A stretch of DNA of 64,000 bases from Candidatus Omnitrophota bacterium (GCA_028716245.1 JAQUQW010000004.1:4630-68629); one strand, 5' to 3'. Shown: positions 9,501-64,000, counted from the first letter of the stretch. The notes: generated by a model from the sequence alone, not told the origin. Numbers and translations: made by a program.

Positions 9501-9769
9501 TTGCCCTCTTCTTTTGATTCTTCTGAAACCATCTCAATATCTTTTTTCGGACAGATATCCGCGCATAACCCGCAGCCCTTGCAATAAGTATAATCTACCG
9601 AAAAAGAATTCTTCTCTTTTCCGCGCACGCAACCCTCCGGGCAGATCATTAAACACATCCTGCAGGCAATACAATTCTTATGTAAATAATGCGGCCGCAG
9701 CAAAGTCCTCCAACTGCCGGTCTTGCTGCCTTTACTTTTTGCCGGATTTACGGTTAACGGTCCGAACAT
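9497..9769 (-). CDS. porD: POR delta subunit (2x[4Fe-4S] ferredoxin).
   Basis: CIACRMCLMICP and CKGCGLCADICP motifs. 90 aa. Confidence 0.85.
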   Translation of the reverse strand: MFGPLTVNPAKSKGSKTGSWRTLLRPHYLHKNCIACRMCLMICPEGCVRGKEKNSFSVDYTYCKGCGLCADICPKKDIEMVSEESKEEGK

Positions 9770-9770
9770 T

Positions 9771-16604: not shown

Positions 16605-16610
16605 ATATTT

Positions 16611-18416
16611 TTAGATTCTTCCGGAATCAGCAACCATCTTATGGATTTGCTGATTTAAAGGATGGCGGAGTAATTCCTCGAGGCTAAGCGGAAGCCTAAG
16701 CGACCAGTTCATTGGGCTGATCGTCCCCGGGACATTTATCCGGTACGCATAGGGATCGCCTTTAAAAATACCGGCTAAACTCAAATAATCGACTATTGAA
16801 TTAATGCAAAATATTGCCTGGGAGCTTAAAATAAACTGGATTACCTTGACTAATAATTCTTCACTGGCAGCTTCGGCCATTGCGCCGGGGCAGCCCAGAA
16901 TCTTCCAAAGTTTCTCTTTTTCTCTATAAGTATTTTCGTAAAGATCGATAAAATCACCTACCCCATCCCTATGCTTACCCAGTTCCCAAAGCAGCTTATC
17001 TACGGTATCGATCTCTTTTCTCCAGCGCAGGCGCCCATGCATTGAAAGGCCCGGATCAAAAAGTTTTAAACTGACTTTGGCAAAATCAATTTTCCGGTCA
17101 TTGCACTTACGCCTAAACAAAGCTTCATCTACCGTACCTGCCTCATACTGCCACCAGGCCTTCCAGTTAGTCGTATCATGCGTAGAAAGCATGCTTACGG
17201 ATAGCTGGCGGTACTCCTGCGGCAGGAGAAAATCATGCCGTTTATGCCAATCCTTGACCCAACGCTGGACATCATTTCCGGGTATTCCAAATTCCAGCAA
17301 CGTATCCGTGCAACATTTAGGGATCACCCCTAAGTCTTCGGCGCAAAGCAGCATTTTTGTGTCTTGCACCAGAACGCTTAATATTTTTTGCCCATGCTGG
17401 CACCAAAGGCCCTCATCAAGAGGATCAAACTTTCCGTTTAGCCCGTGGTTTTCTTCCGGCTCATTATAAGGAATACTCCAGATACGGAAAAGCCCGACGA
17501 CATGGTCAATGCGCAGGATATTATAGAACTCTTGGGCGTATTTTAATTTTTCTTTGATATAACGGTAATCGTCTTTAGAGATATTTTCCCAATTATAAAT
17601 AGGCATCCCCCAGCGCTGCCCCTTGGCACAGTACATATCCGGCGGAGCTCCGGCGGCAAAATCAAGCTTGAAAAATTGCGGGTGGCTCCAGACATCGGCG
17701 CTGTCCCGGGAAACCAAAACCGGCAGGTCGCCTTTTATAAGAATATTATTTTTGGCGGCATATTCAGCTGCCTGCTTAAATTGTTTAAAAAGTACCCACT
17801 GCAGCCACATTTGAAAAGTCACCTCTTCGATGTTCTCCTGCTGGAAATCCTGTAATGCCTGCCGGAAGCGCTGCTTAAATCTTTCTCCCCATTCATACCA
17901 GGGCTTGCCCTGATGATGGTCTTTGAGCACTTTAAAAAGCGCAAAATCCATCAACCAATAAAAATTTTTGCGCTGGAATTCTTCAAAATCAAACGCCTGG
18001 CTTAAATCCTCTGCCAAATAGATATCCCAGAGCAGCCGCAACTTTTCTTCTTTTACCGTGTAATCAACCTGATCGGGGATGCCGGAAACCGGAGTAAATT
18101 TTTTATCTTTTAATTGGCCAAAACCTTTTAGGGAAATATAGGCGGGTTCCAGCGCGAAAGAACTTAAAGCATCATAAGGACAAAACACCGAACCGACTTC
18201 GTTCATCGGCAGCAGCTGGAGAATTGAGTTAGAGGTTAACTTTGCCCAATCGATAATCAGCTTTAAATCATCCAGATCCCCGATGCCAAAACTATCCTTT
18301 GAATACAGGCTAAATAACGGGATTAAAACTCCAGCGCGCTTTTTAAAACCGGCATTTTTCCAATTATCTTTGGATATGCTTTTGGAAAGGAAATCTTGAA
18401 GGTTTAATTCAGGCAT
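16611..18416 (-). CDS. malQ: 4-alpha-glucanotransferase (amylomaltase, GH77).
   Basis: 601 aa. GH77 catalytic region (RIDHVVGLFRIW, CAEDLGVIP, MLSTHDT). Confidence 0.85.
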   Translation of the reverse strand: MPELNLQDFLSKSISKDNWKNAGFKKRAGVLIPLFSLYSKDSFGIGDLDDLKLIIDWAKLTSNSILQLLPMNEVGSVFCPYDALSSFALEPAYISLKGFGQLKDKKFTPVSGIPDQVDYTVKEEKLRLLWDIYLAEDLSQAFDFEEFQRKNFYWLMDFALFKVLKDHHQGKPWYEWGERFKQRFRQALQDFQQENIEEVTFQMWLQWVLFKQFKQAAEYAAKNNILIKGDLPVLVSRDSADVWSHPQFFKLDFAAGAPPDMYCAKGQRWGMPIYNWENISKDDYRYIKEKLKYAQEFYNILRIDHVVGLFRIWSIPYNEPEENHGLNGKFDPLDEGLWCQHGQKILSVLVQDTKMLLCAEDLGVIPKCCTDTLLEFGIPGNDVQRWVKDWHKRHDFLLPQEYRQLSVSMLSTHDTTNWKAWWQYEAGTVDEALFRRKCNDRKIDFAKVSLKLFDPGLSMHGRLRWRKEIDTVDKLLWELGKHRDGVGDFIDLYENTYREKEKLWKILGCPGAMAEAASEELLVKVIQFILSSQAIFCINSIVDYLSLAGIFKGDPYAYRINVPGTISPMNWSLRLPLSLEELLRHPLNQQIHKMVADSGRI

Positions 18417-36613: not shown

Positions 36614-36687
<74 letters not shown>

Positions 36688-36723
36688 GATACCTATCGCG
36701 CACCGACGTCCTCTACCAAGAGG

Positions 36724-36755
36724 ACACCCGCGCAATACCTTATAAGCGCGGGGTG
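36724..36755. repeat. REP-like palindrome ACACCCGCGCAATACCTTATAAGCGCGGGGTG between tRNA-Leu and tRNA-Gly (followed by CTTTTTG on the plus strand).
   Basis: It matches the 30743-30775 copy with two loop substitutions. Confidence 0.45.
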
Positions 36756-36785
36756 CTTTTTGCTACTCGGGTGCTGCAAGTTTCT

Positions 36786-36867
36786 TGGGCGGAAGAGGAC
36801 TTGAACCTCCAAGGGTTGCCCCAATAGCTCCTAAGGCTATCGCGTCTGCCAATTTCGCCATCCGCCC
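36786..36867 (-). tRNA. tRNA-Leu (anticodon TAG), 82 nt with a long variable arm.
   Basis: Manual fold: GGGCGGA acceptor stem, anticodon stem-loop ATAGC-CTTAGGA-GCTAT, 13-nt variable arm, T-arm GGAGGTTCAAGTCCTCT. Confidence 0.85.
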
Positions 36868-36907
36868 TAGAACGGGCACTACCTGCATCCTCTCCTGCTG
36901 AATTTAT

Positions 36908-36980
36908 TGAGCCTCCCGCGACTCGAACGCGGCACAACCACATTAAAAGTGTGGTGCTCTACCGGATGAGCTAGAGGCCC
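36908..36980 (-). tRNA. tRNA-Lys (anticodon TTT), 73 nt.
   Basis: Manual fold: GGGCCTC acceptor stem, D-arm GCTCATCCGGTAGAGC, anticodon stem-loop CCACA-CTTTTAA-TGTGG, T-arm CCGCGTTCGAGTCGCGG. Confidence 0.85.
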
Positions 36981-51129: not shown

Positions 51130-51191
51130 ATTTTACGTGAAGAAGGCGTTTGGTGCCGGCAATCCGGCTCCTAAACGCCTTTGTTTTATTA

Positions 51192-51220
51192 ACTATAACA
51201 AAAGCGTTTAAGAATGTCAA
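51192..51220 (-). promoter_or_regulatory. Putative sigma70 promoter TTGACA -17- TATAGT for pyrG-carA-carB'.
   Basis: Minus strand TTGACAttcttaaacgcttttgtTATAGTtaat, ~60 nt upstream of the pyrG ATG. Confidence 0.45.
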
Positions 51221-51284
51221 ACTATTTTTAAAACCTAATACTGCGCGGGTCCTGCCTTTAGCGTCTGTCTTGTCTTGTTTCCTC

Positions 51285-51400
51285 GCGCACCGCTTGCCCC
51301 GCCCCGGCGAGGCGGGGCTGCGCTCGGCCAGAATTTTGCGCTCTGCCAAGCTTCGTAGATAGCCGGGCATCCGTGCCCGCGCAAAATTCTCACGTGCGCT
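51285..51400. repeat. GC-rich block of nested REP-like palindromes.
   Basis: CCCGCC-ccggcga-GGCGGG; 12-bp arms AGAATTTTGCGC ... GCGCAAAATTCT enclosing GGGCA-tccg-TGCCC; GCGCAC ... GTGCGC. It shares the CCGCGCAA(A)TTC motif with the REP-like copies at 28424, 30743 and 36724. No plausible ORF. Confidence 0.4.
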
Positions 51401-51441
51401 CGGAACCAAGCCAAGCCATCCGCTAATACTATATACATAAA

Positions 51442-51655
51442 TGACACTGACAAGTTTCGCAGCGAGTGTCGATTTTAGCCAATGGAGCTTGAGCGAGGAT
51501 ACCCCAAGGCCAACCTTTAGGTTGGCAATCTTGGGATGGCGATGCTGTTTGAGTGGTTTTTGCTAGAGCAAAAACCACGAGTTCAGCAGCCACCGAAATG
51601 CGAAAGACCATTGGCGTTAAGAAATCGACCTCGAGCGAGAAACTTGTCGGGGTCA
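51442..51655. repeat. 214-nt imperfect palindrome (candidate MITE/ERIC-like element or long-hairpin sRNA).
   Basis: ~35-nt arms TGACACTGACAAGTTTCGCAGCGAGTGTCGATTTT(AGCCAATGG) / (CCATTGGCG...)GAAATCGACCTCGAGCGAGAAACTTGTCGGGGTCA. Internal hairpins CCCAAGG[CCAACC-ttta-GGTTGG]caatCTTGGG (51503-51535) and perfect GTGGTTTTTGC-taga-GCAAAAACCAC (51553-51578). Confidence 0.5.
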
Positions 51656-51707
51656 CCTGTAACAGCGCAGGGCGAAAAATTTCAGCGACGGAAGCAAAAG
51701 ATGGAAA

Positions 51708-53039
51708 TCAAACTAAACGCAAATACTCCTTGCCTTCCTTCCAGGGATTGAGGTAACGCTCAATACTCAGACTGTTATCCTGGACCAGATCAACTACGCG
51801 TTTTTTATCTAGGGGTGAGATAATCTCGACTTTTGGCCGCCGGATGTCGGATTCATTTTCATCTTTAACTAATGCAATACTCCCATCATTTAACGCCACG
51901 ATCGAACCAACCGGCCAGAGGCCCATAAATCGAAAAAATTTATCCAGTAACTCCTGATCAAAAGAAGCGCCTCCCTCTTTATTCATTATATTATAGACCA
52001 CGTCAGGAGAATAATCCTGTTTATAGCCCCTTCTTTGGGAAAGGGCATCATAGACATCGCAGATAGAAACAATCCGGGAAGCAATATGCTGCTTTCTTAA
52101 TAAGGGCATCCGGGGGTAACCGGAGGAATCATATTTTAAATGGTGCTCAAAGCTGACGACCACAGGCAAGAGGCCCAAAGTATCTACATATTTAAGCATT
52201 ATCTCCGCCCCCATAATCGTGTGGCTGCGAATACGCCCAAACTCCTGGTCCGTAAGCTTATCGGGTTTATGCAGTATTTTACGCGAAATGAATAGCTTGC
52301 CGATATCATGGAACATGGCGGCAACGCCGATATTTAAAACATCGCTCTTGTCAAAACCCAGGCGCGAAGAAAAATACATGGAAAGAATAGAAACATTGAG
52401 CATATGGATATAGGTCTCCATATCGTATCTTTTTACCGTAGCCAGCTTAAGCAGCTCCTGGCGCTGCGTGCTTAAATTTTCCATAATATTACCCATGGAA
52501 AGTTTAAGCGCAAGATGGTCGATCTTTTCAAAATTAAGCACTCCGCTTAAAGCCTGATTAATCTTATCCGCGGAAGAATCATAAAGACTGCGTTGAGCCG
52601 GGCCAACATCAGCCTTATCTTTTTCGGACCCAACCTTAAGCTTGCCTATATTAATATGCTGGATACCGGCAAGGTTAAGCATCTCCTGAAGATCCCCTTT
52701 AAAATCTTCTTTGGGCCGGGCGATAAATTCGATGAATATGCCCAGCTCATCTTTACTTAACCCGCGCAAAAAAGCAAGCCTTTCGATATTTCTTTCTTTT
52801 AAATATAAGATCGCCGGGCGCAGAAATTTACTCAGATCAAAAAAGATCTCCTTTTCAAAAGCCAGGTCCTCTCCGACAATTCCAATGATCATCTCCTGGC
52901 GCTCTGCCAGGACATCCTCAAAAGACGCATAGGCGCTATCCAAAGACCTGGTAAACATAGGATGCTTCAGGCCGTACATCTTATAAGCCTGAAGACAGGT
53001 AAGTAAACTTTTAAAAGCCGCCTCAATATTAGAAAACAT
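51708..53039 (-). CDS. HD-GYP domain protein (predicted c-di-GMP phosphodiesterase) with a ~190-aa N-terminal domain of unknown function.
   Basis: HD motif (AAMFHDIGK), HHLKYDSSGYP (HD-GYP signature), SICDVYDAL. Confidence 0.8.
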   Translation of the reverse strand: MFSNIEAAFKSLLTCLQAYKMYGLKHPMFTRSLDSAYASFEDVLAERQEMIIGIVGEDLAFEKEIFFDLSKFLRPAILYLKERNIERLAFLRGLSKDELGIFIEFIARPKEDFKGDLQEMLNLAGIQHINIGKLKVGSEKDKADVGPAQRSLYDSSADKINQALSGVLNFEKIDHLALKLSMGNIMENLSTQRQELLKLATVKRYDMETYIHMLNVSILSMYFSSRLGFDKSDVLNIGVAAMFHDIGKLFISRKILHKPDKLTDQEFGRIRSHTIMGAEIMLKYVDTLGLLPVVVSFEHHLKYDSSGYPRMPLLRKQHIASRIVSICDVYDALSQRRGYKQDYSPDVVYNIMNKEGGASFDQELLDKFFRFMGLWPVGSIVALNDGSIALVKDENESDIRRPKVEIISPLDKKRVVDLVQDNSLSIERYLNPWKEGKEYLRLV

Positions 53040-54972
53040 CCCACTCCTTTAAAATCTGTTTGGCCTTATTCCGCATTTTTTTATTCCAAAAAAATCTCAG
53101 GCGAGCCAAATCGCGGATTCGGCCGGCTGCCTCAACGAATCTCAAATCAAAAACAAGCTGCATGTTTTCCATAAGCAAGTCGTTCTTTTTTCCAAAAAAG
53201 TTAGGAATATTAAACAGCACATCCAACCCCTTCTCTCTTGCCTGCGCATCCAATATCAAAACAGAAAACAAGTTCTTTCTAAGCAGGAAGGAATCCGCAC
53301 TTAACTGGCGCATCAAAAAATCAACATCGACTTTTTTAAATTTAGCCATGGCCGTAAGCACCTCGATCTTAATCAATTCATTAGCTGAAGAATAAATATA
53401 TTCTAAAGCCTCCAGGGCTCTAGGGTCGGCAAGCCGGCCTAAAGCATCGATTAAGCCGGCAAGAAACTCCATATCCTGGAGTTTCTGCCCCAGGCGCTGG
53501 TAAAAAGCATCCATTTGCTGCGCAAACAACCTGAAAAATAAACTCACCACCTGATTACCGGGTTTTAGAGAAGCGAATATTTTATCCAAGTAATAACCAA
53601 CATCCTGGCTGGGCGAAGAAACCATATCCAGGAGAAATTCCTGCTGCGGCAAGAGGGATTGGTTTAACGCAATATTTTCGATAAATGCGGAAAGTTTTTT
53701 TTCAAGATTAGCGCATACGCCGATACCCTGTTTTTTTCTTTCCATCAACAGGCTAAAAATACTCTTTAAAAAATCCAGGTCATTATCTTCAAGTATACCG
53801 GCAAACTCTTTCTCTAAAATTTCCCCTGCTAATTCTAGGTTATCCTCATCCCCGGCGGTTGAAAGCATATTTAAAATTATATAATGGTAATTTCCACGAA
53901 GCCTCCGCTGGTCAAAAAATAATCCTCCGGAAGGAGCAATCCCCTTAATTAAAGATTCCAGTGTGTTACGGTATACGGCGGATACCCGGTCATCATGTCC
54001 TGCGGTTAATAAATTCTGGATTCTCTTTAGCGCGTTGGGATTATCTTTTAAATACTGGGATTGCTTTACCCTGGCTAGGAACCCTTCGGCAATCTTCGGA
54101 GGATTTTTCTGCTCGGCGATTTTGGAAAAAAGCTGCAAACTTAAATCATCGAAATTATCCTCCTGGGAAATACCCTCCCAGAGAAGGGCGCTAAAATCCT
54201 CCGCGCTTAAACTATCAAAGACAGGCACCAGCTTTGCCAGTTTTTCTTCATTAAGGGATTTTTTATTGCGTAAGAGCCATAAAAAAAGATCCTTTGAGCA
54301 TTTATCGAACTTTTCCTTATTCTTTCCCCTTAGACAAACCAGGAACTCATGGATATCTGAAGGGACTTCTTCGGTTTCAAGAATATCTTTTTCGCTGCTG
54401 CGTTTGATCAGCGGGCCGAAATCATCGGCCAGTACCTCTAATTTGGCCGGGTCATTACTGTGGGTAGCCTCCTTAAGTATATATCCCCAAATGTCGGCGC
54501 ATTCCTGCCCCTGCTCCTGCAAAAAGGCAGAGTAGTCCAGCTCCCCTATTGTAAAATGAGCAAGCTGTTTATCCTTAAGAATGGCATTAATTCCGCCGCC
54601 TTTAAAAATATCTTTTTGTGACAGGGAGATTACCGAGAGAAACTGGACCAGTTCCTGAAGGCTCACACCGTTTCTAATTTCGAAGCTTTTGATTTTACGC
54701 TGATGCAACAGGCGGGCTAATTCGTCATAGAAACCGCTTTTAGCCAAATTTTTGCCGTCAACCAGGATACCGGTGCTGGTTACCCCGATTCTAAGCGGGT
54801 TTAAAACAGCCAGGGCATCTTCAAGCTTAACCTTAAAGTTTTCAACGGATTTAATAAAATAAGGGTGGTCTTTGGAATAAGAGAAAGCGTTGGTAAGGGC
54901 GACTTTGAGGCTGCGAAAAAAATCTTCTAGTATTTTTTCATTTTCCACAAGTGTTATTCTACAACCAAACAA
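53029..54972 (-). CDS. Hypothetical 647-aa protein. Its N-terminal ~130 aa are paralogous to the N-domain of the adjacent HD-GYP protein. Its C-terminal region is helical-repeat (HEAT/PBS-lyase-like). The start is uncertain (TTG at 54972 or GTG at 54948).
   Basis: Alignment by eye: ILEDFFRSLKVALTNAFSYSKDHPYF...LEDALAVL...IGV against IEAAFKSLLTCLQAYKMYGLKHPMF...FEDVLAER...IGI. There is an 11-nt overlap with the HD-GYP gene. ALGRLADPRALEALEYIY is a HEAT-like repeat. Confidence 0.4.
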   Translation of the reverse strand: MFGCRITLVENEKILEDFFRSLKVALTNAFSYSKDHPYFIKSVENFKVKLEDALAVLNPLRIGVTSTGILVDGKNLAKSGFYDELARLLHQRKIKSFEIRNGVSLQELVQFLSVISLSQKDIFKGGGINAILKDKQLAHFTIGELDYSAFLQEQGQECADIWGYILKEATHSNDPAKLEVLADDFGPLIKRSSEKDILETEEVPSDIHEFLVCLRGKNKEKFDKCSKDLFLWLLRNKKSLNEEKLAKLVPVFDSLSAEDFSALLWEGISQEDNFDDLSLQLFSKIAEQKNPPKIAEGFLARVKQSQYLKDNPNALKRIQNLLTAGHDDRVSAVYRNTLESLIKGIAPSGGLFFDQRRLRGNYHYIILNMLSTAGDEDNLELAGEILEKEFAGILEDNDLDFLKSIFSLLMERKKQGIGVCANLEKKLSAFIENIALNQSLLPQQEFLLDMVSSPSQDVGYYLDKIFASLKPGNQVVSLFFRLFAQQMDAFYQRLGQKLQDMEFLAGLIDALGRLADPRALEALEYIYSSANELIKIEVLTAMAKFKKVDVDFLMRQLSADSFLLRKNLFSVLILDAQAREKGLDVLFNIPNFFGKKNDLLMENMQLVFDLRFVEAAGRIRDLARLRFFWNKKMRNKAKQILKEWDVF

Positions 54973-56613
54973 CTACTCCTGCAACATTTTCTTAGCCTTA
55001 TCGTCTGCTGCATCGGTAATGAAAGATATACCTGTTTCTTTTTCTGTTTGGCGGTTTGCCGAGAAAATATCGCTACGCGTAATTGACTTAAGCGTGAATC
55101 TCCTGGCACCGGCCATTAACTGCTGCAGGCCAGCCGCTAATTTATCGGCCAGCGTCCAGAAGGCAACTGCGCCTAGAGGCACATTTTTCATCTCATTTTT
55201 GCCGACCTTTTTCTGAAGGTCATAATAACCGGCAAAAAGCTCTTCGGCGCTTGTTCCAAGTTCAGCTACTGATGCCGGAAGCTTATCCCAGCTTCCGCTT
55301 ACCCTGGCTTTGGCTGATGGATTCAACACGCCTTCGATATTAGATCCCAGATATGCGGGAATCATTAACGCCCGGCCCATACATACTAATTTGGTATAAG
55401 GAGCTCCTAATGCCAAAGCTTTGAATATATGATCTTCGCGGGCAAGGCCGCCGGCAAAAGCCATAGCCACCACCTTTTTGCCTTTTTTACGTAAAATTTC
55501 CGCGTATTCATAAGCTTTGGAATGCAGCAATATGGAAGGAACGCCCCAGGTTTCCATCATATTCCAAGGGCTCATCCCGGTACCGCCGCCGGAGCCATCA
55601 ATTGTCAGCAGATCAAGCTTGGCATCGGAAGCGTACTTAATCGACATCGCTAAAGCTTCCATCCCGTAAGAACCAGTCTTCAGCGATATTCTCTTATAAC
55701 CGATCTTCCGCAGGTATTTAACTGCTTCCATAAAACTCTCTTCTACCTGCTTCTCCGAAGAAAGGCTGGTATAGCCTAAACGGCTGTGGCGGGCGATAGA
55801 TTTAATCGCTCCCGCTTTAAAAGCATCCTGTACTTCAGGCACGGTAGGATCAGGATCAACAACATATCCCCGTTTTTTAAGAAACTGCGCGTATTCAAGG
55901 CTGGTAACCTGGATCTCTCCGCCGATACATTTGGCGCCCTGGCCCCACTTTAATTCAATAACCACTTTGTCGCCGTATTTACCAATTACGTATTCGGCAA
56001 CCCCGTTACGGGTATCCTCAACATTCATCTGCACGATAATGGCGCCATAGCCGTCGTAATAACGCAGGAACGTCTCGATCCTTCTGTCCAATTCAGGAGC
56101 CTTGAGGATCCTTCCATTTTTAATTTCGGCCTGTTTATCAATACCGACTACATTCTCCCCAACAACGATCGGCACGCCTACCAGGGCCGCGCCGCAAGCA
56201 AAAGACTCCCAGTATTTGGCGGCGACGAAAGTTGAGCCCAGCGCCCCGGTCATTATCGGAACTCTAAATTTGGTTTTAACTGCCTGCCCGAATTCTCCCT
56301 CAATATTCACATTAGGAAAAATACAATCATCTTCGGAATTCGTCAGCCCCTTAGGAAGGCCGTATGCCCCATAATTATAACCGTTAATCCGCAAAGAATT
56401 ATAAGCGACTCCCAAATGAGTTGTGTTTGCGCTTCCGGCGGTAGTAAAACTATAATCCCTTGGATACAGAAGCTTTCTTCCTTTTAAACTGGAAAGCCAG
56501 GTCTCGCATTTACCCATACAGTCTACGCGGCAAAGGGTGCATAACCCGCTCTCACAAGGATTTCCCCGGTTTACCGTACCTAAAGCATCGTTTGTTTTCG
56601 GCCATTGAATCAT
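54973..56613 (-). CDS. FMN-binding glutamate-synthase-family protein (GltB central-domain-like, archaeal-type) with an N-terminal Cys cluster.
   Basis: PCESGLCTLCRVDCMGKCE N-terminal Fe-S motif. LTIDGSGGGTGMSP and FAGGLAREDHIFKALALGA match the GltS FMN-domain signatures. Confidence 0.7.
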   Translation of the reverse strand: MIQWPKTNDALGTVNRGNPCESGLCTLCRVDCMGKCETWLSSLKGRKLLYPRDYSFTTAGSANTTHLGVAYNSLRINGYNYGAYGLPKGLTNSEDDCIFPNVNIEGEFGQAVKTKFRVPIMTGALGSTFVAAKYWESFACGAALVGVPIVVGENVVGIDKQAEIKNGRILKAPELDRRIETFLRYYDGYGAIIVQMNVEDTRNGVAEYVIGKYGDKVVIELKWGQGAKCIGGEIQVTSLEYAQFLKKRGYVVDPDPTVPEVQDAFKAGAIKSIARHSRLGYTSLSSEKQVEESFMEAVKYLRKIGYKRISLKTGSYGMEALAMSIKYASDAKLDLLTIDGSGGGTGMSPWNMMETWGVPSILLHSKAYEYAEILRKKGKKVVAMAFAGGLAREDHIFKALALGAPYTKLVCMGRALMIPAYLGSNIEGVLNPSAKARVSGSWDKLPASVAELGTSAEELFAGYYDLQKKVGKNEMKNVPLGAVAFWTLADKLAAGLQQLMAGARRFTLKSITRSDIFSANRQTEKETGISFITDAADDKAKKMLQE

Positions 56614-56681: not shown

Positions 56682-56720
56682 AAAAAAGACGCCTTTGCTA
56701 CTCTGCAAAATCAAGGCGTA
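56682..56720 (-). terminator. Rho-independent terminator downstream of nfnB: ACGCCTT-gattttgcagagtagca-AAGGCGT followed by CTTTTTT.
   Basis: Read directly on the minus strand. Confidence 0.65.
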
Positions 56721-56729
56721 ATATTTAAA

Positions 56730-56761
56730 CTATATAATAATACAGGGAATTTCTTTGTCAA
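56730..56761 (-). promoter_or_regulatory. Putative promoter TTGACA -14/17- TATTATATA for the gltB-like / 647-aa / HD-GYP operon.
   Basis: Minus strand TTGACAaagaaattccctgtattattatatag. Confidence 0.35.
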
Positions 56762-58170
56762 GAATTTTGCAGGATACTTATTGCGGCCTTCTTGGCCATA
56801 CCCATGGCCTCAATAACCGTCCCCTCTCCCCCGACAATATCTCCGCCGGCAAAAACATGCTTAATCGAGGTCTCCATGGTCGCAGGATTAATCACAATAT
56901 CTTTGTATTTATCGGTTTTTAATTCAGGGGTGGCGCTGGTTAAAACCTGGTTTGCCTCTAAACCGATAGCAATAATCGTCAGGTCGCAGGGAATACTAAA
57001 ATCACTGCCTTCTAAAGCAACGGGCTTTCTCCTTCCGGAAGCATCCGCTTCTTTAAGTTCACAATTGAGGCAATTTAATTGCCGCACAAAGCCTTTATCA
57101 TCAGCCTGAAACTCTTTGGGCTGAACCAGGAATTTAAATTTAATCCCTTCTTCTTCGGCGTGTTTAATCTCAAGCCTGCGCGCCGGCATCTCGGTTACCG
57201 TGCGCCGGTAAATAATCTTTACGTCCGGTTTTATGCCGTTTATCTTTTGCAGGCGCAGAGCGCAGCGCGCCGCGTCCATGGCGGTATTGCCCCCTCCGAC
57301 AACCAGGGCATGCCGGCCGATATTTACCGGAGTGTGGTATTCGGGGAATTTGTAGGCGGACATCAGGTTTATCCGGGTCAAAAACTCATTAGCCGAATAA
57401 ACATTGCAAAGGTTCTCTCCCTTTATACCCAAAAATAACGGCACTCCGGCGCCTAGCCCCAAGAAAATCCGGCTAAACCCCTGCTGAAATAATTCATCCA
57501 AAGAGACGGTCTTACCCACCAGAACATTGGTTTTAAATTCTACCCCTAACTTAGCTAAATAATTAATCTCATAATCAAGGATTTCCCGCGGCAGACGGAA
57601 GTTCGGAATGCCATACCTTAAAACTCCGCCGCAACTCTGCAGGCCTTCAAAAACAACTACCGCCGCCCCTTTTCTGGCTAATTCACCGGCGCAGCATAAC
57701 CCTGCCGGGCCGCTGCCAACCACGGCTACTTTGGCCTCCGATGATTGGGCATCTTTTTCTACCGGTGCCTGCAAGTTATTGCGCATTCCATAATCGCCGA
57801 CAAACCTCTCCAAAAAATGGATATTGATTGCCTCGGAGCTGCAATACGCTAATTTGCTTTTATTCAACACGCAGGCTTTGCGGCATTGGTATTCCGCCGG
57901 GCAAACCCGGCCGCAAATCGAAGGAAAATTATTCGTTTTGCGGATAGTAAAATAAGCTCCGGCATAATCTTTTTTAGCAACCTGGAAGATAAACTCTTTG
58001 ATATTGATATTTACCGGGCAGCCCGAAATGCAGGTAGGATTTTTACATTGGAGACAACGCAGGCTCTCAGCTAAAGCCTCCTTTTCTGAATATCCTAATA
58101 CTACTTCATCGAATCCGCTTATCCTTTTATCGGCAGATAACTCTTTTGCTTTAATGGGTTCTTTAGTCAT
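56758..58170 (-). CDS. nfnB: NfnB/SudA/GltD-like NAD(P)H oxidoreductase subunit (2x[4Fe-4S] plus FAD/NAD(P) pyridine-nucleotide-disulfide fold). The start is probably the ATG at 58170 (MTKEPIKAKEL); the ORF-track TTG at 58188 is less likely.
   Basis: Cys clusters CLQCKNPTCISGCP / CGRVCPAEYQCRKAC, then VAVVGSGPAGLCCAGELA and a second GGGNTAMD dinucleotide motif. Confidence 0.75.
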   Translation of the reverse strand: MTKEPIKAKELSADKRISGFDEVVLGYSEKEALAESLRCLQCKNPTCISGCPVNINIKEFIFQVAKKDYAGAYFTIRKTNNFPSICGRVCPAEYQCRKACVLNKSKLAYCSSEAINIHFLERFVGDYGMRNNLQAPVEKDAQSSEAKVAVVGSGPAGLCCAGELARKGAAVVVFEGLQSCGGVLRYGIPNFRLPREILDYEINYLAKLGVEFKTNVLVGKTVSLDELFQQGFSRIFLGLGAGVPLFLGIKGENLCNVYSANEFLTRINLMSAYKFPEYHTPVNIGRHALVVGGGNTAMDAARCALRLQKINGIKPDVKIIYRRTVTEMPARRLEIKHAEEEGIKFKFLVQPKEFQADDKGFVRQLNCLNCELKEADASGRRKPVALEGSDFSIPCDLTIIAIGLEANQVLTSATPELKTDKYKDIVINPATMETSIKHVFAGGDIVGGEGTVIEAMGMAKKAAISILQNS

Positions 58171-58207
58171 ATTGGAAACAGTTTCCAACTCAATCGGGAA
58201 ACAGGGC

Positions 58208-59059
58208 CTAAAATTTTAATTTACAGATATGCTTCTCTTTCTCCAGATATATGGAGTTCCTTTTTTCCAGCTCCTCCCAATCAACTTGGCCAGCTTCAAA
58301 CTCCGGGCCGTCTACGCAGCTGAATTTAACTTTTCCGGCAACGGTTACCCTGCAGCAACCGCACATCCCGGTAGCATCAACCATCAGCGCGTTTAATGAA
58401 ACAATTGTTTTAATATTGAAAGACTGGCTAATCTGCGAAACTTTCTTCATCATCGGGATTGGCCCTACCGCGTAAACTAAATCATATTTATCTTTTTTAA
58501 GCAGGTCCTCTAAAACATCAGTGGTAAAACCTTTTTGGCCAAGCGAGCCATCATCAGTCATCAGATAAATTTTATCCGCCGTATCCCTAAGTTCTTTTTC
58601 CAATATTAATAATTCTTTAGTCTTGGCCCCGATGACCGCCGTAATATTGTTTCCTGCCTGCTTTAGGCTTGTTGCCACAGGATAAATTTCGGCAATCCCT
58701 ACTCCACCGCCGACTAAAATAACTTTGCCATAATTTTTTATCTTGGTAGCATGGCCCAGAGGGCCAACCAACGCGTATAGAGTATCGCCTGCATTAAGGG
58801 CACCTAAAGTTTTAGTCGTCAGTCCCACTTCCTGGAAAATAAGGATTATGGTTTGGGCGAAACTATCTGCCTTAACAATAGTCAGCGGTATCCGCTCTCC
58901 TTTTTCGCTGGGCATAACTACGACGAATTGCCCGGCGCCGGCTTTGCGGCTAATCTCCGGGGCGCTTATCGTCAGCTTGACAACCCTTACTCCGGCATGA
59001 TCGACGATAAGTTCTTTAGCGATTATTTTACCGGCTTTGCTCAAATCAGACATATTCAT
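58208..59059 (-). CDS. nfnA: NfnA/SudB/PyrK-like subunit (FAD/NAD(P)-binding ferredoxin-reductase fold with a C-terminal [2Fe-2S]).
   Basis: 283 aa. The C-terminal Cys cluster GMCGCCRV...C matches the PyrK-type 2Fe-2S site. Confidence 0.7.
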   Translation of the reverse strand: MNMSDLSKAGKIIAKELIVDHAGVRVVKLTISAPEISRKAGAGQFVVVMPSEKGERIPLTIVKADSFAQTIILIFQEVGLTTKTLGALNAGDTLYALVGPLGHATKIKNYGKVILVGGGVGIAEIYPVATSLKQAGNNITAVIGAKTKELLILEKELRDTADKIYLMTDDGSLGQKGFTTDVLEDLLKKDKYDLVYAVGPIPMMKKVSQISQSFNIKTIVSLNALMVDATGMCGCCRVTVAGKVKFSCVDGPEFEAGQVDWEELEKRNSIYLEKEKHICKLKF

Positions 59060-60434
59060 CCCTTAGCCCTTTTTCGACGCGGCTAAAAAATTCTTTCAGT
59101 TTAACTTGTTCAGACGCAGCCAGTTCTTTAGAATGCCGCGCGATCATTTTATAGCCGGTATCCCTGACTGCCACGGAAGCAAAATCATCCAGATATTCTT
59201 TCAACGTAATCAAAGCGTTCATCTTGCATTTACCCTTAATCGTTCCGGGCTTAGCCAACTGCATAAAACTTTCACCGGTCCGGTTCATCCGGTAACAAGC
59301 GGCGCAAAAACTGGGAATATAATCATGGGCAATTAAAGTCCCCACTATTTCATCCAAACTGCGATGGTCGCCAAGAGAAAATTGGCCGCCTGCCTGTTCT
59401 TCGGCGCTAGTGGAATAACCTCCGGGTGAGGTAGATGATTCAGCGCTAATCTGAGAAACACCCAGGCTTAGAAGCGTATCGCGCAGCAGCGGGTCTTCAC
59501 GCGTCGACATGATTATCCCGGTATACGGCACAGAAAGCCTTAAAACCGCGACTACTTTCTTAAACTCATCATCAGAAATTTTGCAGGGAGGATTAAAAGA
59601 CAATTGCGCGCCTTCTGCCGGCTCAATGCGCGGCACAGAAATAGTATGCGGCCCGACCTTAAATTTCTCTTCCATGTGTTCAATATGGGAAAGCAGGCCT
59701 AAAGTTTCAAAGCGGTAATCATATAGACCGTAAAGAACCCCAATCCCTATGTCATCTATTCCCGCGGTAAATGCGCGGTCAACCGCATCAATCCGGTTAT
59801 CCGGATCGCTTTTTGGCCCTTTAGGATGCATCCGGCGGTACGTTTCTTCATGGTATGTTTCCTGAAAAACCTGATAAGTTCCAATACCGCTCTCCTTAAG
59901 CCGCTTAAATTCGCTAGTGCCAAGCGGCGCGCAATTAACATTAACTCTTTTTATTTTATGCTTGCCCACCCCTGCCGCATAAATAGCCTTAACTGCCTGG
60001 ACATAATAATCTATATTGGATTTATCTTCCGGGGCAGCCTCCCCGCAAACCATCAGTATTCTCTTGTGGCCGCGCCCCAGGAGCCACTCTACCTGATGTT
60101 TAATTTCAGGCACAGTTAGGGCCTTACGCTTAATCAACGGGTTATCCGCTTTGAATGCGCAATATAAACAATTATTAGCGCAAAGATTGCTGATATAAAG
60201 TGGCGCAAAGAGCACTACCCTTTTCCCATAAATCTCTTCCTTAACTGAATTAGCCGCGCTGAATATCTTCTGAATATATCCGGGATCATCCACCGCAAGC
60301 AAAGCCGCTGACTCAGCCATTGTAAGCCGCTTAAGCGCACGGCTTTTATTCAGAATTGCATCAAGCGCGCGCTGATCAGTGTTTACCGCCTCAATTAATA
60401 AATTATTTATTTTTTCTGCGTTAATATATTTCAT
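59046..60434 (-). CDS. hydG: [FeFe]-hydrogenase-type radical-SAM maturase HydG (tyrosine lyase producing CO/CN).
   Basis: Radical-SAM CANNCLYC (CxxxCxxC) near residue 85. ThiH/HydG-like core. A C-terminal CAACx22C (CX2CX22C) auxiliary-cluster motif distinguishes HydG from ThiH. 462 aa. Confidence 0.8.
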   Translation of the reverse strand: MKYINAEKINNLLIEAVNTDQRALDAILNKSRALKRLTMAESAALLAVDDPGYIQKIFSAANSVKEEIYGKRVVLFAPLYISNLCANNCLYCAFKADNPLIKRKALTVPEIKHQVEWLLGRGHKRILMVCGEAAPEDKSNIDYYVQAVKAIYAAGVGKHKIKRVNVNCAPLGTSEFKRLKESGIGTYQVFQETYHEETYRRMHPKGPKSDPDNRIDAVDRAFTAGIDDIGIGVLYGLYDYRFETLGLLSHIEHMEEKFKVGPHTISVPRIEPAEGAQLSFNPPCKISDDEFKKVVAVLRLSVPYTGIIMSTREDPLLRDTLLSLGVSQISAESSTSPGGYSTSAEEQAGGQFSLGDHRSLDEIVGTLIAHDYIPSFCAACYRMNRTGESFMQLAKPGTIKGKCKMNALITLKEYLDDFASVAVRDTGYKMIARHSKELAASEQVKLKEFFSRVEKGLRDEYV

Positions 60435-60438
60435 AAAA

Positions 60439-61740
60439 TTAAAGCGCCTCCAGATCGGTTGGGGCGCGGCCTAAAGAACGCAAGAGAGAAACCGTGGATT
60501 CAATCTGGGCGGAAATATCCTCGGATTGATGCGCTCTGTCCGGATAAATAGAGTAAAATGGCCGATAGGATAACGGGGTAACATTAAGCATCAGCGAATT
60601 TGCTCCCGCAAGCAGGCTGCTTTTTGCCGCGTCCTTGCTTAAAGTTTCCAGAGCGGTAGTTACCAGAATCTTGGCATTGTTGTCGCCTACAATTCTGGCC
60701 AGGGCCAAGACCTTAATCACTTCTTCTACCGGCACGGACTTGTGATTTGAGAAAGGCGTAGCCGGATGCGGGATAAAAGGGCCGAAACTATACATCTCCG
60801 CGCGCAGCTCTTTAGCCAGAAATAAATCATTTAAAATATCTTCATTGCTCTGCCCGGGTAAGCCGATTAAGCTTCCGGTAAGGATTAAGTAACCCAGAGC
60901 ATAGGCCTTGCGTAAATGCAGCAGCCGGTTCTCTAAGCTCATCCCGGGATGCACCTTCTGATAAAGCTTAAGGTTGGAAGTTTCAAAACGCATCAGCAGG
61001 CCGCGGGCTCCGGCCTGATAAAGTTTTTCTAAACCCTCTACTCCGATCTCGCCAAAACTTATAAAAATCAGCGCGGGAAATTTTTCCTTGATCTGTTTAA
61101 CGATATCCGCTAATTCATCAATGGTGTATCCGGGATCCTCTCCGCTTTGCAAAACTAAAGATTTAAATCCATAAACTTCAACCGCCTCTTTAGCCGCCTG
61201 TAAAATTTCATCCTTACTCATGCGATAGCGCTTCAGTTCCTTATTATGATAAGATATCCCGCAATACTGGCAACCCTGGCAACAGTAATTGGATATCTCA
61301 ATTATCCCATGGACGCAGCAGGAATTTTTATGGTATTTCTGGCGCAGGAAATTTGCTGTTTTAAAAAATAACTCTATCTTGTGCTTGTCTTTTGACCCCA
61401 ATAGGTACAACAGCTCCCGGCGGCTGAGCTCTCTTGACTGGCTGGCCTTATCCAATATTGCAAATAGTTTCTTATCCGTATGCGTACCGTTAAACTGCAG
61501 GCGGGAAAGCTTTAAATCCACCTCCTGCAATTGGAAAAACGTTTCTTTCCATACCGCAAGAATACTTTGGGCCTCAGAGGGAGAAATCTTGCTGACCACA
61601 AATCCTCCCTGCGCGTAGATATAATCGCCGATATCGATTTTGGACAGTTCGTTATGGGCTTTCCTTTTCTCGCCAAAATAATCCACGGTGACCGTGTTAT
61701 TCTCTATTTTTTCAACTTTCCCCGGTATGGCATAACACAT
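60439..61740 (-). CDS. hydE: Fusion protein: N-terminal HypC/HupF-like domain (aa 1-~75, starts MCYAIP) fused to the radical-SAM maturase HydE (aa ~90-433).
   Basis: MCYAIPGKVEKIENNTVTVDYFGEKRKAHNELSKIDIGDYIYAQGGFVV follows the HypC consensus MC[LI]AIP...VDFGG......GDY.LVH.GFA. Downstream, SNYCCQGCQYC (CxxxCxxC) and LKRYRMSKDEILQAAKEAVEVYGFKSLVLQSGEDPGY align closely with Thermotoga HydE (LKRYRMTPEEIVERARLAV..GAKTIVLQSGEDPY). Confidence 0.8.
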   Translation of the reverse strand: MCYAIPGKVEKIENNTVTVDYFGEKRKAHNELSKIDIGDYIYAQGGFVVSKISPSEAQSILAVWKETFFQLQEVDLKLSRLQFNGTHTDKKLFAILDKASQSRELSRRELLYLLGSKDKHKIELFFKTANFLRQKYHKNSCCVHGIIEISNYCCQGCQYCGISYHNKELKRYRMSKDEILQAAKEAVEVYGFKSLVLQSGEDPGYTIDELADIVKQIKEKFPALIFISFGEIGVEGLEKLYQAGARGLLMRFETSNLKLYQKVHPGMSLENRLLHLRKAYALGYLILTGSLIGLPGQSNEDILNDLFLAKELRAEMYSFGPFIPHPATPFSNHKSVPVEEVIKVLALARIVGDNNAKILVTTALETLSKDAAKSSLLAGANSLMLNVTPLSYRPFYSIYPDRAHQSEDISAQIESTVSLLRSLGRAPTDLEAL

Positions 61741-61746
61741 CTTAAA

Positions 61747-62211
61747 CTAAAGCAGCCTTTCTTGGATAAATTTATCAACTTGTTCGGTCAACTCTTGCAG
61801 CTTTTCTTGCAATGTACCGCTTAAAGATTCGCCAAAACCTACATCAGCCACCTGGATGCCGGCAACATAAATTTTGGTTGTAATCTCCAAATCGGAGGTT
61901 AACCTGAAAATATCCTTAAGATTTAGTTCATGGGATGAGAGCGCACTGTCTTTATTTGTAAAAGAGGCTTGCTCTAAACCAAATATCTTTAACTCCCCTA
62001 TCGGCAATTTTGCGTTGATACCGTCGATAAGTAAAACCGTATCATAGTCCTGCAGGCGATGGATTAAATCAAAACTGGCAATGCCAAAATCAAGATAGTC
62101 GATACCCGGGCGCGGATAATGATTAAGGAGGGACCCCAGAATAATTACCCCTATTCCGTCATCTCTCCTTAAACTGTTGCCTAAACCGATTACCGCGATT
62201 TTTTTAGACAA
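61747..62211 (-). CDS. [NiFe] hydrogenase maturation endopeptidase (HycI/HybD family). TTG start.
   Basis: IAVIGLGNSLRRDDGIGV..., D..DTVLLIDGI, and FTNK...SSHELNL (cf. HybD FTNK.SPHQLGL). Confidence 0.75.
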   Translation of the reverse strand: MSKKIAVIGLGNSLRRDDGIGVIILGSLLNHYPRPGIDYLDFGIASFDLIHRLQDYDTVLLIDGINAKLPIGELKIFGLEQASFTNKDSALSSHELNLKDIFRLTSDLEITTKIYVAGIQVADVGFGESLSGTLQEKLQELTEQVDKFIQERLL

Positions 62212-63574
62212 AGCTTACGTCCAGCAAATGCGTGGCGCAGGATATGCAGGGGTCATAGGAACGGGCCAACATCTCAAGATCAAGGGTAATCTCTTCTTGA
62301 GTTTTCTTACCCAACAACTCCGGGACAAGTTTGCGCATATCATCCTCTAAATTACCTATATTCTGATTGGTAGGAATCACGCAGTTGGCAGCCGTAATAT
62401 GCGCGGAATCATCAATTGTATATTCATGGAATAAAGAACCCCGGGGTACTTCAACGCATCCTGTGCCGGTATTGGGTTTATATTTGATCTTGCCAACTTC
62501 ACTTCTCTTTGGCCAGGAGGCAACCACCACCCCCTCCTCCTTTAATCCGTCTTTTAAAATCTTCTCCAGTATAGTAATCGATTCTTCCAGGCAGTGCACC
62601 CATTCCACAAGCTGAGCGGCAGTATTAAGGTAAGGGTTATAGCAGGGAGCCTTTAGCCCTAATTCGGCGGCTACTGCCTTGGCTTTTTTGTGCAGCTTAT
62701 TGAAATTATTGTTAAAACGCGACAGGGATCCCACGGCATAAGACTTGCCGTTGATCTTGGAAATTTTAGCCTTGGAATAATCGACCACGGATTCCATAAA
62801 AAGTTTACGGTAATCCCGCACTTTGCTCTTTTCCCCGTTGACCATTAAATCTCCGTCATACATCGCGTATTCATCATCAGAGGTCAGGGACATATATTGA
62901 GTCGGCCTCTGGAATTGCGGAAATTTAAGCGTCTTAATGATCTTTACCGTCGCTTCGCCGTCTTTGCGCGATTCTAACATCAGGGTATGCAATTTTTCCA
63001 GTCCTTCCCTTGACGGAAGCTGGGTAAGCCCGCCGATAACATAACTTATCGGATGGATATGCCTGCCGGCAAGCACCTCTGCGCCATAATCACTCATCCG
63101 CTTCATCCGTAAAGCCATCTCAATTACCGGCCGGTGCGTTTTGATCAAAGGAACAATACTTTTTACCCCTAATAAATCCGGGGCAACCAGAATATAGATG
63201 TGCAAAATATGGCTGTCCAGCATCTCGGTGTATAGCAGCAGCTTCCTGAGCATCACTACTTCAGCTGATGGTTTTACGCCCAAGGCATCCTCTGCCGCCT
63301 TAATGCTGGCCAGGGTATGCCCGCAAGCGCAAATGCCGCAGATACGGCTGGTCAGATGCTGGGCTTCCCAGATCGACCTGCCGACAAGCATCGACTCAAA
63401 AAAACGCGGAGATTCAATTACCTGAAACTCGCATTTAGCCAGCTTGCCTTCTTTTACGTCCACAACAATATTACCATGGCCCTCTACCCTGGTCAGATAA
63501 TGCACATCAACATTCAGGTTTTGCGAATCTATCTTATTTGAACTCTTGGTCATATTTCTCCCCCATAGAATCAT
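62204..63574 (-). CDS. [NiFe] hydrogenase large subunit (group-3-type signatures).
   Basis: L1 motif RICGICACGH with upstream RVEGHG. C-terminal L2 motif DPCISCATH followed by a 7-aa tail (LLDVSFV) as the potential protease-cleaved extension. The alternative ATG start at 63553 would reduce the overlap with the small subunit. Confidence 0.9.
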   Translation of the reverse strand: MILWGRNMTKSSNKIDSQNLNVDVHYLTRVEGHGNIVVDVKEGKLAKCEFQVIESPRFFESMLVGRSIWEAQHLTSRICGICACGHTLASIKAAEDALGVKPSAEVVMLRKLLLYTEMLDSHILHIYILVAPDLLGVKSIVPLIKTHRPVIEMALRMKRMSDYGAEVLAGRHIHPISYVIGGLTQLPSREGLEKLHTLMLESRKDGEATVKIIKTLKFPQFQRPTQYMSLTSDDEYAMYDGDLMVNGEKSKVRDYRKLFMESVVDYSKAKISKINGKSYAVGSLSRFNNNFNKLHKKAKAVAAELGLKAPCYNPYLNTAAQLVEWVHCLEESITILEKILKDGLKEEGVVVASWPKRSEVGKIKYKPNTGTGCVEVPRGSLFHEYTIDDSAHITAANCVIPTNQNIGNLEDDMRKLVPELLGKKTQEEITLDLEMLARSYDPCISCATHLLDVSFV

Positions 63575-64000
63575 TATATAAAGTAAAACTATTCAGGATA
63601 TCCTCTACCTTTAACCCGTATTTTTGCAAGATATCTTTTGCCGCGTCACTTGCCGGTTTCTCAACCAACCCTCGGCAGCCATAGCAGCGGTTTCCGTTAT
63701 TAATGCACCAGGAGTTGCATCCGGCGCGGGTAACCGGGCCCATACACTCCTGATCCTTTTCATAACGACAGACATTTTCATTCATCTTGCATTCCACGCA
63801 AACAGCGTAATTGGGCAAAGGATAAGGCTTACCCAAAAGGATTGCTTTGAGGACCGCAATAATCTCGGGAATATAAGGCGGGCAGTTAAGGATATAATAA
63901 TCCACTTTCACTACCGCGTCCAGCGGCATGGCCTTAATGGTGTTGATCAACCCGGCCTTGTCCCCGTAAACTCTTTGTTTGGCCAACTCTAGGGGCGAGC
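63534..64000 (-). CDS. [NiFe] hydrogenase small subunit, C-terminal part (the N-terminus lies beyond the window end). The ORF-track start at 63986 is an internal TTG, and the frame stays open to position 64000.
   Basis: YYILNCPPYIPE (cf. GCPP proximal-cluster motif) and the C-terminal Cys array CVEC...C...C...CNSWC...CYGC for the medial/distal Fe-S clusters. Confidence 0.75.
   Translation of the reverse strand, partial: SPLELAKQRVYGDKAGLINTIKAMPLDAVVKVDYYILNCPPYIPEIIAVLKAILLGKPYPLPNYAVCVECKMNENVCRYEKDQECMGPVTRAGCNSWCINNGNRCYGCRGLVEKPASDAAKDILQKYGLKVEDILNSFTLYNDSMGEKYDQEFK

Follow-up and report, generated by a model that had tools for sequence, protein, structure and literature searches.

In the current work, a 64,000-nucleotide (nt) stretch of DNA from a Candidatus Omnitrophota bacterium (GCA_028716245.1, JAQUQW010000004.1:4630-68629; this whole stretch is hereafter referred to as the window, and positions are counted from its first letter) was analysed with respect to an operon at its right end, in which the structural genes of a [NiFe] hydrogenase are followed by two genes for radical S-adenosylmethionine (radical-SAM) enzymes, namely a fusion of hypC to hydE (HypC::HydE, below simply the fusion) and hydG. 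HydG and HydE are generally taken to serve [FeFe] enzymes only. The hybrid [NiFe]/HydE/HydG operon reported in the initial annotation is confirmed: all of the genes it had named are present at the places given for them on the minus strand, which carries nearly all long open reading frames (ORFs) of the window, as judged from NCBIfam and Pfam profiles and from motifs, and its HydE and HydG domain calls hold when checked with profile hidden Markov models (HMMs; TIGR03956 and TIGR03955), a HypC-like domain being matched by Pfam HupF_HypC. A functional tie of the fusion and HydG to the adjacent [NiFe] hydrogenase is strongly supported by comparative sequence evidence, since the arrangement is syntenic with three [NiFe] groups, includes triple fusions and a hypA-hypB-hypC::hydE-hydG gene order, leaves a separate canonical HydE beside [FeFe] enzymes, and is maintained by purifying selection on both the fusion and HydG. 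The two proteins probably serve [NiFe] maturation in some capacity, and our preferred reading, held with moderate confidence, is that they would build the Fe-CO/CN unit and that the fused HypC would deliver it to the [NiFe] large subunit; the operon carries these two genes, and not HypC, HypD, HypE and HypF, for cofactor assembly.

The fusion is encoded by one unbroken ORF of 433 amino acids (aa; 60439..61740, minus strand), in which a HypC-like domain (residues 1-67; 61540..61740) is joined to a HydE-type radical-SAM domain (residues 96-433; 60439..61455) by a helical linker (residues 68-95; 61456..61539) that was delimited from alignments and an AlphaFold model. Pfam HupF_HypC (PF01455) covers residues 1-64 with 53.8 bits (gathering score 28.5), the HypC model TIGR00074 reaches 42.7 bits against a cut-off of 48, and the domain aligns with Thermococcus kodakarensis HypC (2z1c; E 3e-8) and with Escherichia coli HypC. 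Cys2, within the sequence MCYAIPG, is kept at the N-terminus and is invariant in 53 aligned fusions. Across the fusion alignments, a GDYxYAQGG segment, the helical linker and the radical-SAM cysteines are likewise invariant, as are the residues W64/E66/F68/F69/L71/Q72/D75/S79 around the linker. The HydE model TIGR03956 covers residues 96-414 with 255.9 bits, barely above its cut-off of 254.6, and residues 91-427 align end to end with Thermotoga maritima HydE (E 5e-70). The CX3CX2C motif of the radical-SAM domain corresponds to the invariant C153/C157/C160, and the equally invariant M316 and M384 are aligned with Met224 and Met291 of T. maritima HydE, while the cysteines of the optional second Fe-S cluster are missing from the fused domain in this alignment. 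The AlphaFold model of the fusion (predicted template modelling score 0.84; helices 54-64 and 68-83 at a predicted local distance difference test score of 58-72) superimposes on T. maritima HydE with a Foldseek target-normalised TM-score of 0.93-0.96 and a root-mean-square deviation of 1.4 Å at 41% identity. In databases, proteins of this kind are labelled 'HydE', 'HypC family chaperone', 'biotin synthase' or 'radical SAM protein'.

The HydG encoded directly downstream (462 aa; 59046..60434, minus strand) scores 491.2 bits with TIGR03955, for which the equivalog cut-off is 312.15, and its residues 3-461 align with Thermoanaerobacter italicus HydG (4WCX; E 1e-132, 61% identity). It carries the radical-SAM motif CANNCLYC near residue 85 and, aligned with that of T. 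italicus HydG, the C-terminal CX2CX22C motif (FCAACYR...x22...C) which had been called diagnostic for this protein. The window HydG is thus a full family member, from which a role as tyrosine lyase producing the Fe(CO)2(CN) synthon is predicted.

Relatives of the fusion are encoded by at least 385 GTDB species genomes, as found in a scan of one genome per species, and this recurrence places the arrangement far beyond chance. For the comparison of gene neighbourhoods, loci were taken from the 80 best of the 385 genomes, with later additions raising the number to 84 and then to 96 (L085-L096). Each locus comprises up to 10 kb on either side of the fusion, counts given below over 85 loci refer to the 84 fetched loci plus the window, and ORFs were called and clustered, HMMs were built from recurrent clusters, and [NiFe] calls were verified with Pfam. 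The 80 loci belong to Omnitrophota, Margulisiibacteriota, Saganbacteria/WOR-1, WOR-3, Brevinematales/Spirochaetes, Auribacterota, Elusimicrobia and others. Among database proteins, the nearest ones have a length of about 433 aa and both Pfam domains throughout, and they form more than 120 clusters at 90% identity, mostly labelled Omnitrophota, that share 62-95% identity with the window fusion; an exhaustive profile search yielded about 20 fusion clusters at the 50% identity level, while canonical standalone HydEs are 33-43% identical to the window protein. When the window and the first 84 loci were scanned for motifs, MCYAIPG was likewise seen at the start of the fusion gene.

Upstream of the fusion, the window encodes two subunits of a group 3b [NiFe] hydrogenase. 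The small (delta) subunit is represented by its C-terminal part of about 150 aa (63534..>64000, minus strand), since the gene runs off the window end; it matches NCBIfam sulfhyd_HydD/ShyD over profile positions 108-246 of 261 (E 7e-24), and its full-length orthologue in L001 is a 254-aa protein with an Oxidored_q6 domain. The large (alpha) subunit (456 aa; 62204..63574, minus strand) was recognised by its motifs RICGICACGH and DPCISCATH, by Pfam NiFeSe_Hases and by NCBIfam ShyA/HydA, and ends in a short C-terminal extension for proteolytic maturation. It is assigned to group 3b because its nearest solved chains in the PDB are the alpha subunits of sulfhydrogenase 1 from Pyrococcus furiosus and T. 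kodakarensis (9nez, 5yxy; E 4e-66), and to a distant branch of that group because it misses the NCBIfam equivalog cut-offs of the Pyrococcus proteins (252 against 700 bits). Delta (partial) and alpha are the only 3b subunits inside the window; the relatives L001 and L005, which are 90-92% identical to it (L005 being the closest, at 92%), encode beta (Fer4_22), gamma, delta and alpha. The operon start lies beyond the window end, and the versions in L001 and L005 open with a short HypA-like gene, followed by beta and gamma. Between the large subunit and the fusion lies a hydrogenase maturation endopeptidase (154 aa; 61747..62211, minus strand; Pfam HycI), a gene found in 66 of the 85 loci. The protease had been described as HycI-like, of which the membership in the HyaD/HybD/HycI superfamily stands (TIGR00072, 99.5 bits against a cut-off of 47.45), the protein fitting this superfamily model only and not matching the HycI equivalog.

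The same partners recur in the related loci, for which a check of synteny had been suggested: the arrangement is found with three [NiFe] groups (3b, 4 and 1) across many phyla. A [NiFe] large subunit is encoded in 70 of the 85 loci (54 of group 3b, 15 of group 4 of the Mbh-Mrp type, and one Tat-exported and group 1-like), and most of the 15 loci that are devoid of one end at contig ends. Of the 68 loci with at least 3 kb of upstream sequence, 60 have the protease or a HypA-like gene as the first or second gene before the fusion. HydG is the first or second gene after it in 34 of 66 loci, and is present at some place in 45 of these 66. HydG stands directly after the fusion, with no [FeFe] block, in the window and in loci such as L001, L005, L008 and L009. 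In distant lineages, 3b operons contain two families of triple fusions of HypC, HydE and HydG (P0122, 906 aa, L085:10001-12721; P0129, 881 aa, L089:10001-12646), and gene orders such as HycI-HypA-HypB-HypC::HydE-HydG (L096), HypA-HypB-fusion with adjacent HydG (L083), fusion-HydG-small subunit-large subunit-protease...HypA-HypB (L078), and HypC-fusion-HydG convergent with a 3b operon (L092, again a distant lineage) are encountered. Published neighbourhood counts (PMC12727194) were considered as a baseline and dropped as a control, as they pool 13 query genes.

Some further features of these neighbourhoods were recorded. The HypA-like gene mostly corresponds to the N-terminal, nickel-binding half of HypA only (Pfam positions 1-66 of 112); its products are of 80-92 aa, start with MHE or MHD and are without the CxxC...CxxC zinc module, and they fall into cluster c6 (L039:9635-9877 and 44 other loci), located just upstream of the fusion, and cluster c13 (L010:5183-5461 and 13 others), located at the head of the 3b operon. 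In P0145 (803 aa), HydE is joined to HydG and the HypC domain is absent. In L092, a standalone HypC of 76 aa is encoded directly upstream of the fusion (9766-9996), and a further radical-SAM gene of 373 aa follows the 3b beta subunit (16474-17595). A second HydG type of about 498 aa, in which CX2CX22C is replaced by FCTAGYRCGRTG[KE]C...x14...C (C-x5-C-x5-C-x14-C), passes the HydG equivalog with 460 bits; it is present in L034, L036, L037, L039, L040, L042, L044, L047, L051, L052, L055, L061, L062, L068, L071, L075, L078, L079 and L082, mostly beside fusions in group 4 loci, and in L040 beside HydF and a canonical HydE. A membrane protein of 237-253 aa with a His-rich loop (HVHLHVHADGEVHRHTHVH), for which no Pfam match was obtained, is encoded near hydrogenase or HypA/HypB genes (cluster c44, L026:7415-8128 and five other loci; L078:18053-18814) and may be a nickel transporter.

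The Hyp genes were then considered. Around the fusion, genes for nickel insertion and proteolysis are present, and the Hyp iron-ligand branch is never there. No HypD or HypE was detected by tblastn in the window and the 96 loci (1.56 Mb), even beside HypA/HypB, the queries having been verified against PDB entries, and neither signatures of HypD or HypB nor zinc fingers of HypF came up when the window and the first 84 loci (1.4 Mb) were scanned for motifs. In L072, a HypE-like 'PRIC' motif was rejected as spurious, being located on the strand opposite to a gene read as Fic-like (a reading unconfirmed by family scan). Within the window itself, no hyp gene, hydA or hydF was found in the other 57 kb by reading ORFs of at least 150 aa, by motif scan and by tblastn with HypD, HypE and HydF, which agrees with the earlier statement that no such gene occurs in the 64 kb. 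The related suggestion, that the radical-SAM enzymes stand in the place of hyp genes, holds at the level of the neighbourhoods searched. That the Hyp iron-ligand branch has been replaced is plausible.

These results bear on the alternative that HydG and the fusion are donors of CO only, in which case HypC, HypD, HypE and HypF encoded elsewhere would provide the cyanides, and HydG together with HydE-HypC would provide the carbonyl under anoxic conditions, in the manner of an anaerobic HypX. This alternative shares the synteny evidence with our preferred reading, HydG is a known biological generator of CO, the fusion in L092 is accompanied by an extra standalone HypC, and where anaerobes obtain the CO is the chief question still to be answered for [NiFe] maturation (PMC12134894). 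It is nevertheless considered unlikely, given that neither HypD and HypE nor the HypF zinc finger were found in the sequences searched, including those where HypA/HypB are present, and that HydG yields CN and CO equally, which would make a separate cyanide pathway redundant.

Considering that HydG and HydE are known from [FeFe] maturation, the distribution of [FeFe] genes in the same loci is of particular relevance. A [FeFe] hydrogenase (HydA) is encoded 4-6 kb downstream of the fusion in 13 of the 85 loci, after genes for Rex, a sensor kinase and NuoE/F-like subunits. The premise that no [FeFe] client is around, correct for the window, is weakened by these 13 loci, in which a conventional HydG/HydE client exists for part of the lineage. 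The catalytic subunits concerned (L002:17086-18870, L013:16099-17865 and 11 other loci) are partnered by NuoE/F-like subunits or a NuoF-GltD fusion and are preceded by genes for Rex, a Cache/HAMP histidine kinase and response regulators; in eight of the [FeFe] loci, caught by motif scan, the H-cluster motif reads TSCSPGW, with Ser for the second Cys. In the four of these loci whose sequence reaches far enough (L011, L013, L030 and L032), HydG and a standalone HydE come after the [FeFe] block, and the fusion stays with the [NiFe] genes; in L040, HydF, HydG and a standalone HydE are situated upstream of a 3b operon that ends in the fusion. Since the [FeFe] blocks have their own standalone HydE, the fused HydE represents a second copy that is kept with the [NiFe] genes.

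This paralogy is reflected in a neighbour-joining tree of 226 HydE domains, in which all 98 fused domains (98/98) fall on one side and 118 standalone ones, including those of L040 and L032, on the other; ten apparently unfused sequences on the fused side are mostly fragments or have mis-called starts. According to this tree, the fused HydE domain is a clade of its own apart from canonical HydE, the deepest branch being short, so that monophyly of the fused clade awaits a better tree. Consistent with a separate type, standalone HydEs from related loci reach 330-360 bits with TIGR03956, against about 256 for the fused domain. The window and its closest relatives lack the entire [FeFe] block as well as the standalone HydE, and in them HydG abuts the fusion. 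Comparison of the window with L005 or L001 gave ratios of nonsynonymous to synonymous substitution rates (dN/dS) of 0.11 for the fusion and 0.10-0.13 for HydG, similar to the protease, and values of about 0.1 indicate that both genes are kept by selection without the [FeFe] block. HydF occurs in one of the 85 loci (L040) and as a remnant in another (L009). The latter is an 85-aa ORF between HydG and the NfnA-like gene (L009:12757-13014), homologous only to the C-terminal part of HydF, with 48% identity to L040 HydF and with the HCGAC cluster motif changed to SCWGC; from its sequence, it looks like a HydF remnant left after loss of the [FeFe] block.

It could be argued from the 13 loci with HydA, where Rex and the sensor kinase lie between the fusion and the [FeFe] gene, that HydG and the HydE domain serve only [FeFe] enzymes, whether encoded close by or at other places in the genome, that the HypC domain works with HypD, HypE and HypF encoded elsewhere, and that the synteny reflects co-regulation, for instance by Rex. 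The 61% identity of the window HydG to T. italicus HydG and its passing of the equivalog cut-off would fit such a role, hyp genes can be unlinked from structural genes, and hypACDEF appear for at least one Omnitrophota genome in the gene lists of two genomes within the supplement of PMC10066038. Yet the [FeFe] loci own a standalone HydE beside HydG, which would make the fused HydE redundant there, and the fused HydE, a separate clade, keeps its catalytic residues and shows a dN/dS of 0.11 in operons that have no [FeFe] block. Moreover, triple fusions and hypA-hypB-fusion-hydG orders are found in loci with no visible [FeFe] gene, and HydF is confined to one locus and the L009 remnant. We therefore judge a purely [FeFe]-directed role to be unlikely. 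Omnitrophota metagenome-assembled genomes from Ace Lake carry one hydrogenase each, of group 3b in three genera, in a report in which maturation genes are not listed (PMC8542988); such single-hydrogenase genomes, should they carry the fusion, would fit a [NiFe]-only client.

According to our preferred reading, maturation would proceed as follows. HydG, as expected from its family, would cleave tyrosine and assemble, at its C-terminal cluster, an Fe(CO)2(CN) complex bound to cysteine; such a complex is the product described for HydG (PMC10114646). Next, the HydE domain would take over the complex and strip off the cysteine backbone by radical chemistry as in H-cluster synthesis, where HydE attacks the cysteine sulfur of the complex radically and frees a mononuclear Fe-carbonyl-cyanide species (PMC10114646). 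This mononuclear species would then bypass the dimerisation on HydF and be delivered by the fused HypC to the [NiFe] large subunit; HypC is described as a carrier which binds Fe(CN)2(CO) through its N-terminal cysteine and hands it to the large subunit (PMC12134894). Finally, the HypA-like protein, plus HypB in some lineages, would add nickel, after which the endopeptidase would trim the C-terminus; the genes for this step are present, as a HypA-like gene at the operon head in relatives, as HypB in some lineages and as the endopeptidase. Nickel addition followed by endopeptidase trimming is standard for [NiFe] maturation. A covalent link between HypC and HydE would be what one would design in order to divert the HydE product from HydF to the [NiFe] large subunit. 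Of the hybrid route put forward initially, the connection with the [NiFe] enzyme is strongly supported by synteny, triple fusions, paralogy and selection, while the delivery of CO and/or CN is what we infer. In its fullest form, in which HypD, HypE and HypF are wholly replaced by HydG, the HydE paralogue and the HypC carrier, and CO and CN both originate from tyrosine, the proposal is possible but somewhat doubtful.

Several observations weigh against the proposed route. A ligand exchange from CO to CN must be postulated, because HydG yields Fe(CO)2(CN) and the [NiFe] site needs Fe(CN)2(CO). At the position of the His that HypC proteins conserve (E. coli His51, T. kodakarensis His45), the fusion has an invariant Gln44, HypC normally requires Cys41 of HypD as its partner, and the AlphaFold model gives no fixed docking of the HypC and HydE domains, with low confidence in the linker. 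The HydG which adjoins [FeFe] hydrogenases is 72-82% identical to the window HydG, and since the same type is found at both places, HydG is not specialised for [NiFe]; its interpretation as a [NiFe]-specialised paralogue was accordingly ruled out. To this are added the 13 loci with HydA downstream of the fusion mentioned above and about 13 loci with no visible [FeFe] hydrogenase which also have no HydG nearby. For characterised 3b enzymes, the hyp genes are frequently located away from the structural genes; hypDEF, hydF and hydA may be encoded elsewhere in these genomes, and hypACDEF are listed for at least one Omnitrophota genome (PMC10066038).

A further such observation is that five loci (L037, L041, L053, L059 and L076) have no hydrogenase within 10 kb of the fusion, often with HydG present, and this also invites the explanation that the fusion and HydG act on another client, such as an unrecognised enzyme or the NfnAB-like or glutamate-synthase-like proteins, or that HypC replaces HydF as a scaffold for the H-cluster. 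NfnAB-like genes do follow HydG in the window and its close relatives. However, the genes downstream of the fusion vary by locus, while the protease, the HypA-like gene and the [NiFe] genes upstream are its constant partners, and HypC is known only as a chaperone of the [NiFe] large subunit, which makes any such explanation very improbable.

With respect to the remainder of the operon, the HydG stop codon is overlapped by 14 nt by a gene for an NfnA/SudB-like FAD/NAD(P)-binding subunit (58208..59059, minus strand), which scores 357 bits with NCBIfam PRK06222 (cut-off 220) and contains the Pfam domains DHODB_Fe-S_bind and NAD_binding_1. It is followed by a gene for an NfnB/GltD-like NADPH-dependent oxidoreductase subunit (56758..58188, minus strand), with 514.6 bits for TIGR01316 against 471.75 and the Pfam domains Fer4_20 and Pyr_redox_2. 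As both lie above their family cut-offs, the pair is predicted to form an NADPH oxidoreductase of the NfnAB/SudAB type. A terminator had been placed after NfnB; a consensus terminator scan with a loop limit of 8 nt reported none there, and reading by eye revealed a weak terminator-like hairpin only (56682..56719, minus strand), with a 7-bp stem (56719-56713/56695-56689), a 17-nt loop and a T6 run at 56687-56682. A near-consensus promoter-like site (11/12) is present at 56761-56734. The next three genes after the NfnB-like one are arranged in the same order in relatives: these encode a 546-aa protein in which a Cys-rich N-terminus is combined with a Glu_synthase domain (54973-56613; cluster c29), a 647-aa protein with no family match (53029-54972; c23) and a 443-aa HD-domain protein (51708-53039; c24). 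The 580-bp stretch between pyrG and the HD-domain gene (51130-51707) yielded neither a convincing ORF nor a match in Rfam at gathering thresholds. Three tRNA genes are located at 36614-36980 on the minus strand, and the rest of the window is occupied by housekeeping genes for purine, branched-chain amino acid, glycolysis, translation and lipid A functions.

A literature search, in which subscription journals were thinly covered and which included PMC12134894 and PMC11216029, retrieved no description of a HypC-HydE fusion or of HydG or HydE in [NiFe] maturation. The HypC-HydE(-HydG) module, situated in the slot of hypC within [NiFe] operons of hundreds of uncultured anaerobes, is a candidate for an alternative Fe-CO/CN route or for an anaerobic source of CO. 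If this is correct, about three accessory genes would be involved, which would allow simpler heterologous production of [NiFe] hydrogenases. Likewise, the use of marker genes would change, given that HydE/HydG hits are now taken to indicate [FeFe] hydrogenases and missing hyp genes to indicate non-functional [NiFe] enzymes, and an evolutionary and mechanistic bridge between the two hydrogenase maturation machineries would be established.

In comparison with the canonical Hyp system, consisting of HypA-F and an endopeptidase, the fusion loci share a HypC-type domain with its essential N-terminal cysteine, a HypA-like gene, HypB in some loci, and an endopeptidase right after the structural genes. 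The order of protease, HypA-like and HypC-like genes is one which we take to mirror hybD, hybF and hybG of the E. coli hyb operon. The canonical system differs by its HypD scaffold and its HypE/HypF cyanide branch, neither of which was seen in the 96 fusion neighbourhoods, whereas in the fusion loci HypC is joined to a radical-SAM enzyme, its His is changed to Gln, and HypA is often represented by its N-terminal half only. With [FeFe] maturation by HydG, HydE and HydF, these loci have in common a full HydG including the C-terminal cluster motif and the HydE fold, with 41% identity to T. maritima HydE, the radical-SAM cysteines and the equivalents of Met224 and Met291. They differ in that neither HydF nor HydA is found in the window or in most loci, and in that the HydE clade has HypC attached in every case, is without the cysteines of the optional second cluster and coexists with canonical HydE near [FeFe] enzymes.

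In aerobes, HypX obtains CO from formyl-tetrahydrofolate and depends on HypC, HypD, HypE and HypF as well. Six Hyp proteins are stated to be necessary for every [NiFe] hydrogenase, HypX is needed in addition for CO synthesis under oxic conditions, and the anaerobic source of CO is named as the most pressing open question (PMC12134894). The fusion with HydG resembles HypX in that it would be an accessory source, besides the six core Hyp proteins, of a diatomic ligand for the [NiFe] iron, and differs from it in its putative source, tyrosine, in its oxygen-sensitive radical-SAM enzymes and in its occurrence in anaerobes. Lastly, the algal HydEF fusion and the archaeal [FeFe]-[NiFe] hybrids (PMC11216029) are fusions within one pathway or of structural subunits, in which no [NiFe] chaperone is joined to an [FeFe] maturase, and they provide a precedent both for the fusion of maturases and for links between the hydrogenase classes.

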